From assembly GCA_963701075.1 (NCBI GenBank), contig OY969559.1, positions 192,001-256,000 of the forward strand: a stretch of DNA of 64,000 nt. Direction: 5' to 3'. A program made the position numbers and the translations under genes. Source of the stretch: an uncultured Nitrososphaerota archaeon. Lineage in GTDB: Archaea > Thermoproteota > Nitrososphaeria > Nitrososphaerales > Nitrosopumilaceae. The notes beneath the pieces were generated by a model. It had not been told where the DNA came from, did not search any database, and was given only the letters and a program-made list of their open reading frames with translations. Shown piece by piece: positions 44,153-53,100 of the stretch; position 1 is the stretch's first letter; the number at the start of each line of letters is the position of its first letter.

Positions 44153-44365
44153 TCAATTTAGAACTTCGATGATCAGTTTTTCGTCGTTTTTAGAATCTTC
44201 TTCTAAAGACTCTAGAACAAGTTCTATGGCTTCAGTCATATTCTTCTTTAATTCTTCGATTGTTTCACCTTCACTTATGGCCCCTGGCAACTCAAGACAT
44301 TGTCCAGTATAGCCTCCTTCAGGAGCCTTTTGAAGTCGTATGGTAAACTTGTGTTTTTCTGTCAT
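44153..44365 (-). CDS. hicB: HicB-family antitoxin (orphan)
   Basis: EGGY...C.ELPGAISEGETIEE...N..EAI. Confidence 0.88.
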   Translation of the reverse strand: MTEKHKFTIRLQKAPEGGYTGQCLELPGAISEGETIEELKKNMTEAIELVLESLEEDSKNDEKLIIEVLN

Positions 44366-44507
44366 GGTATAGATTATGATTCTGTCATATTTCTAGTTGC
44401 CTCAAAGGTTCTGTCAAATTCCCGTACTCTAGCAGATATTAAAATCGGTTCAAGTCAAACAAGCAAGCTTGGGGCTAACACTAGATCAGTATTATCAATT
44501 TTTCAGC

Positions 44508-51202: not shown

Positions 51203-51278
51203 AGTTTTTTTGGAATTGTTTTGGACTAATAAGCTTCTCGAAGAATATGGCAAATATTGTCTTTTCAATGTAGTGAAA

Positions 51279-51503
51279 TTACAAGAGAGTGATAAATTCC
51301 TCAACTGTCAATTCCGCCTCTTCCAATATAGCCTTCAACGTACCTTTGGCTATCTCTTTATGATTTGGTACTGTCAGTCTTTTATGCGGATGTTCTCTAT
51401 GTCTTAAAATTATATGACTTCCAGTTTGATGATCTGTATCGTACCCAATTTTTGATAATACCTTGATTACTTTTATGGCTGAAACTATTGGAATTTTAGG
51501 CAC
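51279..51503 (-). CDS. hicA: HicA mRNA interferase toxin
   Basis: QTGSHIIL; TVPNH.EI..GTL..IL. Confidence 0.93.
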   Translation of the reverse strand: MPKIPIVSAIKVIKVLSKIGYDTDHQTGSHIILRHREHPHKRLTVPNHKEIAKGTLKAILEEAELTVEEFITLL

Positions 51504-51705
51504 TTACTTCAACCAATTCTTCTTCTACATTTGGGAGAGGCTCATTATGTTTTTTTAGGCTTTGCAAGTATCCACGTACTGCATCCTTGATGTTAGTCAA
51601 AGCATCTTCTCGTGTCTTGCCCTGCGAGATACAACCTGGTAAGGATGGACATTTTGCTACAAATATGCCGTCCTCATCTTGCTGTATCAATATTCGATAT
51701 TTCAT
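51496..51705 (-). CDS. hicB: HicB antitoxin
   Basis: DEDG.FVA.CPSLPGCISQG.TREDAL.NI. Confidence 0.93.
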   Translation of the reverse strand: MKYRILIQQDEDGIFVAKCPSLPGCISQGKTREDALTNIKDAVRGYLQSLKKHNEPLPNVEEELVEVSA

Positions 51706-51782
51706 TACTATTGTCCTTTGTGTTTTTTATTTACTTAAACGTTAACTTCTAGTATTTTATTATGTCTTTGACTAGTCAAATA

Positions 51783-53058
51783 GGTTCTGTCAACTTGATG
51801 GCTCATCCTACAAGTAAACTCGGCGCAATCTGCTCCACATCTTTGGACTGCTTCATCGCTTCATCTTGCACTGCGTCAGGCTCGAACCGTGCTGGTTCTT
51901 TCTGTTTCAGCATTGCCAAGCCTCTAGCCAGAATGTTTCTGCTGGCGTTTTTGTCCCTGTCTATTATAACACAACAGGTCGGACATCTCATCATTCGATG
52001 CTCTTCGGGTATCATTTTTGACCCACATACCGCACACTTCGATGAAGTCCCATTTGGTTTTACATAAATCACTTCAAGGCCGTTACAATCAACTGACTTG
52101 TATTTGATCATCTTTTGCAACTTGAATCGTGACCACGAGTTTAGTCTGAATCTAAACCTTTTTCCCTGACCGTTTCCTTTTCTGTACAATTTTCTTATTC
52201 CAGTGAGATTCTCCATTATGACCTGCCTGCCCTGTGATACAATCTCACTTGATTTCTGGTGCAGGAATGTATCTTCTCTGTTCTTTTGTTTCTTGCCATA
52301 TTTTTGTTTGAGTCTCTTCTGTATTCTGGCATCGTTTCTTGTAAAGTGCGACAGTACATCTCTGTATTTTGCCTTCATTGATGCAATATCAGACATGTCT
52401 AGTACCATGGTGGTGCTGGTTTCGTCCGTGCCAGTTGCGTTCTCAAGGTTCATGTCAATTCCAATGTATCCAGCCGGTTCCTTTCTTGATATCCCTCTTG
52501 TATAAGATATGGATAATTTTTTACCAGTTAATGTAATCTCTCCTAGTTTCAGACCTGGTTGTAGTAGAACATTATAGACATGGTGATTGAGAGGGATGTA
52601 GACAAACTGTCTTGGTCTAACCGGAAACTTGAGGTGGTTGTGGACTAGCTCGTATCTCTGGTTATCAATTACAAGTATGCGTCTTTTCATGAATGGTATC
52701 TTTACACTTGCATTCTTCTTTTTAGCTCGACGATAGTTTTTGAGCATGGCACAAGCCTTCCAGATTGCAGTGTAGACATATCCAGAATACATCATCTTGT
52801 TGAATTTTGGGTAGACAAGACTACGCAGTTTGAATCGTGAAGTGATACCATGTTTGATACCAAGCCTTATTGCCTCGTTTACAACAGACCTGAAATCCTC
52901 CATCACTGGCACAATCTCAGTACAGCTATGATTCTGTGTTGCACACTTGACTGATAACATTGTAGGCTTTTGATATCTCTGATCTTCTTAAGAAGGAGGT
53001 AATTGTGATATGTCGCAAGTTTACAATGTCTGCCACGAGCCATCAAGTTGGCAGAACC
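51783..53058 (-). mobile_element. 1276-bp non-autonomous TnpB element with 22-bp TIRs and 8-bp TSD
   Basis: ggttctgtcaacttgatggctc (51783-51804) and gagccatcaagttggcagaacc (53037-53058); gtcaaata at 51775-51782 and 53059-53066. Confidence 0.92.
51803..52960 (-). CDS. tnpB: TnpB RNA-guided endonuclease
   Basis: RuvC GIDMN, IMENL and DRDKNASRNI; zinc finger TSSKCAVCG..CPTC. Confidence 0.93.
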   Translation of the reverse strand: MLSVKCATQNHSCTEIVPVMEDFRSVVNEAIRLGIKHGITSRFKLRSLVYPKFNKMMYSGYVYTAIWKACAMLKNYRRAKKKNASVKIPFMKRRILVIDNQRYELVHNHLKFPVRPRQFVYIPLNHHVYNVLLQPGLKLGEITLTGKKLSISYTRGISRKEPAGYIGIDMNLENATGTDETSTTMVLDMSDIASMKAKYRDVLSHFTRNDARIQKRLKQKYGKKQKNREDTFLHQKSSEIVSQGRQVIMENLTGIRKLYRKGNGQGKRFRFRLNSWSRFKLQKMIKYKSVDCNGLEVIYVKPNGTSSKCAVCGSKMIPEEHRMMRCPTCCVIIDRDKNASRNILARGLAMLKQKEPARFEPDAVQDEAMKQSKDVEQIAPSLLVG

Positions 53059-53100
53059 GTCAAATAACATTATTAATGGAACTAAATAGAATTCCAACGA

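Follow-up and report, generated by a model that had tools for sequence, protein, structure and literature searches.

In this study, we found that a 64,000-nucleotide stretch of an archaeal chromosome (G000:C1:192001-256000, hereafter the window, in whose numbering positions without a contig name are given unless stated otherwise) contains an element in which an intact gene for TnpB lies between terminal inverted repeats (TIRs) that are flanked by an 8-bp target-site duplication (TSD). This TnpB element, 1276 bp in length (51783-53058), is very probably a non-autonomous transposon of the IS6-family type with a TnpB/omegaRNA module as its only cargo. Its mobilisation in trans by an IS6-like DDE transposase is likewise well supported and, in our judgement, highly likely, on the basis of genomic copies with variable TSDs, the lack of Y1 and serine transposases, the presence of a resident IS6-family element, and nearly identical TIRs in relatives. 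The genome, G000, is a single contig of 1.92 Mb with 38.6% G+C, is 95%-complete, and belongs to what we take to be a soil ammonia-oxidising archaeon.

The limits of the element follow from the window sequence and from a repeat finder, which returned the two 22-nt TIRs as one pair (I1) with arms at 51783-51804 and 53037-53058. The arms match at 21 of 22 positions (95% complementary), and the sole mismatch, T versus C, is at position 8. Directly outside both arms lies a perfect TSD, GTCAAATA, with its left copy at 51775-51782 and its right copy at 53059-53066. The arm at 51783-51804 is beside the 3' end of tnpB, forms the right end in tnpB orientation, and reads GGTTCTGTCAACTTGATGGCTC inward; the arm at 53037-53058, on the 5' side of tnpB, forms the left end. 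The TIRs have the GG tip and CTGT of IS6 ends (GGTTCTGTCAAC), with CAAC where IS6 ends have the 'caaa' block and with a length of 22 nt rather than 15-20 nt. The element encodes no transposase, and tnpB, on the minus strand at 51803-52960, is its only long open reading frame (ORF). A 5' leader conserved in all four copies of the element (52961-53036, minus strand) extends from the left-end TIR to the start of tnpB, and the TGA stop codon (51803-51805) has two bases in common with the right-end TIR.

Judged by its family matches, a D-E-D triad and a C4 zinc finger, this 385-amino-acid ORF is TnpB. It matches Pfam PF07282 (55.3 bits, cut-off 26.3) and NCBIfam TIGR01766 (45.8, cut-off 32), and scores just below the cut-off of the guided_TnpB model NF040570 (96.2 vs 100). 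Alignment to solved TnpB and Cas12f chains places the RuvC residues at D169 (IGIDMN), E250 (IMENL) and D336 (IDRDKNAS), and the CxxC...CxxC zinc finger at C309/C312/C326/C329. A protein-mode search of a plasmid collection with this TnpB returned 3 weak matches of 25-30% identity, none of them informative. An earlier reading of the window from its letters alone (hereafter the sequence-only reading) had described a 1276-bp element with 22-bp TIRs bearing one mismatch, a perfect 8-bp duplication, TnpB as the only encoded protein with its RuvC triad and zinc finger intact, and a stop codon running into the TIR. The window sequence, the repeat finder and the alignment confirm all of these features.

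Genome G000 contains four full-length copies of the element, which are 88-91% identical and each have different flanks. Copy A, that of the window, has the TSD GTCAAATA (8/8), copy B has GACAATAA (8/8), and copy D has CAAGATTA / TAAGATTA (7/8). Copy C has no TSD, and carries a frameshift near codon 267 and a 1-bp deletion in one TIR. The right-end TIR GGTTCTGTCAACTTGATGGCTC is identical in copies B and D. With at most one mismatch, the TIR occurs 9 times in the genome, compared with 0 times for a reversed-pattern control. Furthermore, contigs of public DNA runs depart from the window sequence exactly at the TIR tips (51781-51783 and 53058), and past these tips they run into the flanks of copies B, C and D. 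Chance is excluded by the nine TIR matches against none for the control, the four copies with different flanks, and the contig breaks at the tips. Transposition has carried the element to at least four places in G000, and its other copies, apart from copy C, carry TIRs with variable 8-bp TSDs as the sequence-only reading had expected.

These observations can hardly be reconciled with an ordinary IS200/IS605 element of the tnpB-only IS1341 type, moved by a Y1 or serine TnpA, in which the TIRs and the duplication would be coincidental. Such tnpB-only elements are common and the protein does match TnpB models, but 22-nt TIRs are present on all four copies and different 8-bp TSDs at three of them, and the TIRs around IS6-family transposases are the same. 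Searches of the single-contig genome, which is 95% complete, gave 0 matches for Y1_Tnp and 0 for the serine Resolvase, and positive controls were detected.

Of the IS6-family transposase genes in the genome, one is intact (PF13610, 67.4 bits, cut-off 27; NF033587, 130, cut-off 125) and three others are fragments. The intact gene lies outside the window in a complete IS6-family element of 2278 bp (G000:C1:1816906-1819183; L011/L042), the ends of which, GGCTCTGTAAAGTTATCGGCTC and GGCTCTGTACAATCAACGGCAC, are alike at 17/22 positions and are flanked by a perfect 8-bp TSD, TGTTTGAA. The resident transposase, of ~385 amino acids, has an N-terminal zinc-binding part, and its stop codon lies within the right TIR. 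Upstream of it, the element carries as passengers an ORF of 221 amino acids with membrane/coiled-coil character and a small ribbon-helix-helix (RHH)-like ORF. Downstream of the element we observed two small ORFs without a Pfam match and several decayed transposase 3' ends. The TIR of a decayed IS6-like 3' end at position 1820112 of the contig is 20/22 identical to that of the TnpB element.

In relatives, the TIRs that enclose IS6-like transposases 65-78% identical to the resident one are almost the same as the TIRs of the TnpB element. G005 contains a complete IS6-like element with TIRs matching the TnpB TIR at 21/22 and 19/22 positions and with the TSD ATAAAACA; in G094 and G302 the transposase stop codon abuts TIRs that are 20/22 and 21/22 identical; and in metagenome loci L103, L117 and L119 transposases 65-72% identical are found beside the same TIR. 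Another complete element, of 2478 bp with TIRs at 20/22 and the TSD TGACACTG, comes from G077, an unpublished genome on which the perfect TSDs of two TnpB loci given below (L031 and L037) also rest. The right-end TIR of the TnpB element shows 19-21/22 identity to ends of autonomous IS6-like elements. With the resident element included, the autonomous relatives measure 2278 bp, 2478 bp and about 2.7 kb, and the interiors examined carry extra ORFs. The TIR finder missed the ends of the 28 closest IS6-like transposase loci, which is a limit of that method, and a TIR pattern search later recovered ends. The transposase family has matches in 82 of 151 family genomes, and compact multi-copy members of it also make 8-bp TSDs (G065, 1631 bp).

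Among 39 tnpB-bearing and 50 transposase-bearing loci, none has both tnpB and an IS6 transposase within one TIR pair, which indicates that the TnpB elements are non-autonomous. The same separation also weighs against mobilisation in trans, as do two other observations: the TIRs of the resident IS6-family element match the TnpB TIR at only 16/22 and 14/22 positions, leaving present-day cross-mobilisation unproven, and the four copies are 9-12% divergent, so that the activity may be ancient. The expectation that a DDE transposase with the same ends would be found was borne out by the nearly identical ends in relatives, while the ends of the resident element are only related. By this association, an IS6-family transposase would act on the ends of the TnpB element. 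The proposal of the sequence-only reading, a non-autonomous element with IS6-family ends that is mobilised in trans by an IS6-like transposase, is well supported.

TnpB relatives (E <= 1e-40) are present in 13 of the 151 family genomes, and the nearest public matches to the TIR are in Nitrosotalea and in Thaumarchaeota metagenome-assembled genomes. A GGTTCTG-type TIR pair (at least 14/22) was detected in 11 of 27 TnpB loci from relatives, and five of these 11 have perfect 8-bp TSDs (L015, L034, L024, L031 and L037, the last two from G077). TSDs of 7/8 are found in L016, L097 and L094, the last with a TnpB 74% identical to that of the window. In L091 and L129, TnpB is only 31% identical, yet the right-end TIR is an exact match to the 19-nt search pattern (21/21 in L129), and the TSD is ATTAACTG. 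A second subfamily is found in the complete genome G094 (L183, L185, L187 and L188), where copies are 96-97% identical and have perfect TSDs, which implies present activity of such elements in the genus. In 13 other TnpB relatives the TIR finder detected no convincing TIR pair, except at a shared site (L171-L173, 13-16/22); the right-end tip AGAAC(C/T) is kept in all 13, and some have left-end-like AGTTCTAC starts. At the shared site, common to three genomes (G324, G263 and G350), a TnpB element 57% identical has ends beginning GGTTCTGC and is flanked only by a TTAA-like 4-bp repeat, not by an 8-bp TSD.

Alternatively, the four copies may be fossils of a family that is immobile in this lineage, with tnpB kept by chance or for a host function. 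Besides the divergence of the copies, the decay of copy C (frameshift, TIR deletion and lost TSD), the diverged TIRs of the resident transposase element, and the many relatives at 52-79% identity without a recognisable left end or TSD would fit this view. On the other hand, three of the four ORFs are intact, the ratio of nonsynonymous to synonymous substitution rates (dN/dS) is 0.20-0.27 between copies A, B and D, the catalytic residues are intact, two TSDs are still perfect, and the G094 sister subfamily points to a system that is active in the genus. We regard an immobile family as doubtful, and prefer a TnpB element that is mobilised in trans.

Several other TIR-like sequences and TnpB genes were observed in the genome. 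A solo perfect 22-nt TIR is located at G000:C1:168583-168604 (L009:1505-1526), 1.5 kb from copy D, where it adjoins a second hicAB pair between rmlA-like and rmlD-like genes; neither an inverted partner nor a TSD was found for it. A second GGTTCTGT start, oriented like the solo TIR, is present at about 169088. A composite transposon made of the solo TIR and copy D was considered and rejected, since the flanks do not match. The left end of a TnpB paralog at G000:C1:144460-145744, only 33% identical to the window TnpB, is similar (GGTTCTGTCAAGTTTATTGCTC), its right end is degenerate, and the TIR finder detected no TIR pair at the paralogs at 68107, 270845, 297557 and 1209709.

The last 113 nt of the element (51783-51895, minus strand), which overlap the last ~30 codons of tnpB and end at the transposon tip, fit an omegaRNA scaffold as predicted computationally. 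Diversity among the four copies is 0.124 in the coding sequence and 0.025-0.05 in the last ~140 nt, and dS of the last 60 codons is about half of that of the remainder. This 3' block is nearly invariant even in TnpBs only 45-59% identical. In the structure predicted by RNAalifold, the outer helix is formed by a conserved GGUUC paired with the terminal GAACC of the TIR. Twelve seed sequences show double changes in 5 of 26 pairs, a number reached by 0 of 500 shuffles. A covariance model of 113 nt built from this seed gave 36 matches in 61 sources, with 128 bits for the window, and no Rfam family matches the scaffold. In an alignment of 35 distinct sequences, 93.9% of cells are paired and compensatory changes occur in 16 of 26 pairs (81 cells), again reached by 0 of 500 shuffles, whereas pairing in slid controls is 23-40%, with no more than 8 pairs. 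It should be considered, as a caution against this prediction, that the 35-sequence alignment was fitted to the model, which favours the structure.

As the predicted structured RNA ends at 51783, the guide would start with the TSD. By geometry, the predicted guide is encoded by the 20 nt of minus-strand flank 3' of the transposon end (51763-51782), the first 8 nt of which are a TSD copy. This agrees with the sequence-only reading, which had the omegaRNA ending in the TIR and the guide starting with the TSD, in that the conserved structured RNA predicted here ends in the TIR.

The pairing of GGUUC with GAACC raises the alternative that the terminal repeats serve mainly the RNA, and that the element spreads through TnpB-induced breaks and their repair rather than by a DDE transposase. 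The retention of the right-end tip AGAAC(C/T) in the 13 further relatives even without a detected TIR pair, together with its pairing in the RNA model, would be expected in this case. However, the left end has the same 22 nt without an evident RNA role, 8-bp TSDs are a signature of staggered DDE strand transfer, and transposase-carrying elements use the same ends. Spread by breakage and repair thus appears very unlikely, and the repeats are better viewed as ends for a DDE transposase, one of which may also take part in the RNA.

Since the TSD is 8 bp long and variable, it can only belong to the guide, which places the target-adjacent motif (TAM) outside it. The DNA preceding the guide sequence in an empty allele would be that which lies 5' of the left-end TSD in the occupied allele, so that the TAM is expected there. 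The 5 nt at this position, directly 5' of the left-end-side TSD, read AATGT in copy A (53067-53071, minus strand), AGTGC in copy B, ATTGT in copy C, AATGC in copy D, and AATGT in L094. ANTGY is accordingly found in five of six close-subfamily insertions, and the motif is missing at the mirror position of the opposite flank. Insertions of the G094 subfamily have TA directly 5' of the 8 bp in 4/7 cases (L183, L185, L186 and L187), or in 5/7 if the TSD of L184 is 7 bp, and L188 and L190 have TTG. TA is likewise found in L129, L097, L024 and L031. The asymmetry of the motif and its dependence on the TnpB subfamily favour its reading as a TAM, which we consider reasonably probable. Whereas the sequence-only reading held that the TAM and self-targeting logic must differ from that of IS605, a TAM 5' of the far-end TSD would represent the same logic shifted by 8 bp.

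Some observations speak against a TAM. The sample is small, and the sixth insertion, in G273, does not fit ANTGY, as its ATTGT lies 2 nt further out and is out of register. Moreover, the motif of copies A and B coincides with the B recognition element (BRE)/TATA region of a divergent host promoter. The flank motif, whether ANTGY or TA, may instead reflect insertion of IS6-like elements into AT-rich DNA upstream of BRE/TATA promoters, with TnpB having no part in site choice or persistence. Copy A is about 35 bp upstream of tRNA-Gln, and its ACATT is part of a promoter block, ACATTAT(T/A)AA(A/T)GGAAC, that is conserved in 8/8 relatives examined; the motif of copy B abuts the TATATC box of the divergent gene. 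TIR-like remnants just upstream of tRNA-Gln in L166 (G223), L165 (G248) and L168 (G268), namely CTTGACAGAAAC, GCAGAACACC and TTGACAGTACC, stop within a few bases of the conserved promoter block; being at almost the same spot, they fit site choice by the insertion machinery and suggest repeated IS6-type insertion near this promoter. Similarly, IS6-like elements of two genera (L045/L146 in G005 and L043 in G077) adjoin a RadA-like gene at the same position beside GGAACTGT. Their perfect TSDs differ (ATAAAACA vs TGACACTG), and the two insertions look like independent events at one hotspot. However, the motif is restricted to one flank, whereas symmetry is normal for the target preferences of DDE transposases, and it varies among TnpB subfamilies with common IS6-type ends (ANTGY, TA or TTG). 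Copy C has the motif despite lying in the 3' end of a coding region. Furthermore, ANTGY is found at 0/6 TSD-flanking positions of three complete IS6-like elements, one of which (that of G005) has TGT at its TSD. A pure promoter preference therefore seems rather unlikely to us, and a TAM remains our preferred explanation of the motif.

An exact empty-site allele was sought in relatives and in the contigs of DNA runs. The contigs of four DNA runs break inside the repeat and provide no clean empty-site joint, and one joint in run X5 represents a different hicAB/tRNA-Gln arrangement in another strain. Among the relatives' loci compared, no exact pre-insertion allele was found, because the adjoining hicAB cassette is itself variable; the relative G151 has a single GTCAAATA at the same place, upstream of tRNA-Gln.

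The element lies between a hicAB pair, 78 bp beyond the left TSD, and tRNA-Gln, 35 bp beyond the right TSD, and the tRNA is the sole match in an Rfam search. The variable spot between a gene for a 183-amino-acid secreted protein and tRNA-Gln (51243-53066; relatives' loci L162-L169) contains hicAB and the TnpB element in G000, and a PIN/RHH (vapBC-like) pair in G121. G243, G141, G151, G248 and G268 have short spacers only and no such cassette at this spot, and G223 and G094 instead have a homologous hicAB cassette on the downstream side of the tRNA. Upstream of hicB, at 51767-51780, a perfect 14-bp palindrome, TTTGACTAGTCAAA, overlaps the predicted guide as well as the left TSD, and may serve as an operator for HicB. 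Elsewhere in the window, at 44153-44421, a 15-mer similar to the start of the TIR, GGTTCTGTCAAATTC, with 2 mismatches, lies 42 bp upstream of a third HicB-like ORF (44153-44365, minus strand). No partner arm was found for it, and it is probably a chance match or an operator-like GTCAAAT word.

Taken together, these data lead us to propose how such an element could operate. An IS6-like DDE transposase would bind the common TIRs and move the TnpB element in trans, with transposition of the copy-in (cointegrate) type by analogy with IS26. The last ~113 nt, consisting of the tnpB 3' end and the TIR, would be transcribed as the omegaRNA scaffold, and continued transcription into the flank would supply a guide made of the 8-bp TSD and the next ~8-12 nt. 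With the proposed TAM (ANTGY in close relatives) preceding the guide sequence in the unoccupied allele, TnpB would cut empty alleles, while both occupied junctions would be protected, the right-end junction by TIR sequence in the TAM position and the left-end junction by a match to only 8 nt of the guide.

If this holds, the variable target duplication would be the guide seed. The TAM would lie outside the duplication on the far flank and differ between TnpB subfamilies with the same transposase ends, and a 5-nt tip of a transposase-binding TIR would double as the closing helix of the omegaRNA. TnpB re-cuts the scarless donor joint after IS200/IS605 excision, and this accepted role does not transfer simply to a target-duplicating DDE transposon, which would never excise if it is IS26-like. 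TnpB would instead filter or copy insertions by cutting empty alleles of a never-excising transposon, a role that differs from rescue of the excised IS605 donor site. To our knowledge, IS6-type transposition does not involve excision, which makes the benefit of homing for such an element conjectural and counts against the proposed role. As one joint claim, the coupling of an RNA-guided nuclease to a copy-in IS6-type DDE transposon, with these three consequences and this role, is tentative, and slightly likelier to fail than to hold in full. The family offers a compact natural test case, with an intact TnpB of 385 amino acids, a 113-nt candidate scaffold whose ends are defined, a predicted guide that starts with the TSD, subfamily-specific candidate TAMs, and a partner transposase that can be identified. 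With it, the candidate genome-editing enzymes also gain small archaeal TnpBs, possibly with new TAMs.

Among known systems, IS200/IS605 and IS607 have neither TIRs nor TSDs, and IS200/IS605 elements have subterminal hairpins, a Y1 TnpA, and a TAM directly abutting the left end, according to the available part of a 2026 review (PMC13565253). Like IS1341-type elements, the TnpB element has TnpB as cargo, a predicted omegaRNA overlapping the 3' end of tnpB, and a guide taken from the flank. Unlike IS200/IS605, it has both TIRs and TSDs, in a genome without Y1 or serine transposase.

The IS6 family, as described in the accessible text of its review (PMC7986276), makes 8-bp direct repeats and has short GG-tipped TIRs with cTGTt / caaa; classic members are 0.7-0.9 kb long with one transposase of 213-254 amino acids. 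The element resembles IS6/IS26 in its 8-bp repeats, its short TIRs with GG tip and CTGT, and its partner in DDE_Tnp_IS240 / NF033587. It differs from the classic IS6 pattern in that the autonomous relatives here are 2.3-2.7 kb long with passenger ORFs, and in that the TnpB element has no transposase. Within that text, one passenger-gene member (ISDsp3) is given and TnpB is mentioned 0 times. We found no literature linking TnpB to the IS6 family, in a search that lay outside most subscription journals and ISfinder.

Fanzor is a TnpB-family nuclease of eukaryotic DDE transposons with TIRs and TSDs (PMC3627910, PMC10711439 and PMC13565253, as far as their available text goes). In the reported cases its TSD is short and fixed (TA or TTAA), with the 5' copy read as part of the TAM and the 3' copy lying in the scaffold, according to the same portions of PMC13565253 and PMC10711439. 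As in Fanzor cases, the RNA scaffold predicted here stops at the transposon boundary; unlike in Fanzor, the TSD is 8 bp and variable.

The closest counterparts are prokaryotic. In the available text of Altae-Tran et al. (2023; PMC10691335), six DDE-associated TnpB branches (DDE-1 to DDE-6) are described, all with inverted terminal repeats, along with solo TnpBs that have near-identical ends and are presumed to be mobilised in trans. In that text, DDE-5 has a TA motif 8 bp upstream of the transposon end and is included among plasmid-represented branches in a sentence on rearranged catalytic sites, and IS630 (DDE-6) is the only partner family named. The list of TnpB partners in the available part of the 2026 review has ISL2, IS630 and IS1031, but not IS6 (PMC13565253). 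As in the DDE branches, TnpB lies here inside inverted terminal repeats common to a DDE element, and the tnpB 3' end is at most 250 bp from the transposon end; as in DDE-5, a TA geometry 8 bp from the end is seen in insertions of relatives. Unlike in the DDE-5 text, the present TnpB has a canonical D-E-D and is chromosomal in an archaeon. The premise of the sequence-only reading that TnpB hosts are limited to IS200/IS605 and IS607 is out of date in view of these branches. Homologous copies here do carry the TIRs and TSDs, and the architecture is to a large extent in the literature already and belongs to a class published in outline (PMC10691335, in its available text). To this class, the present case adds a named partner family and, as predicted features, a TSD serving as guide seed, a TAM candidate displaced by 8 bp, and a TIR tip doubling as an RNA helix. 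It could thus show how modules of obligate mobile element-guided activity (OMEGA) adapt to TSD-making transposons in prokaryotes, as Fanzors did in eukaryotes.

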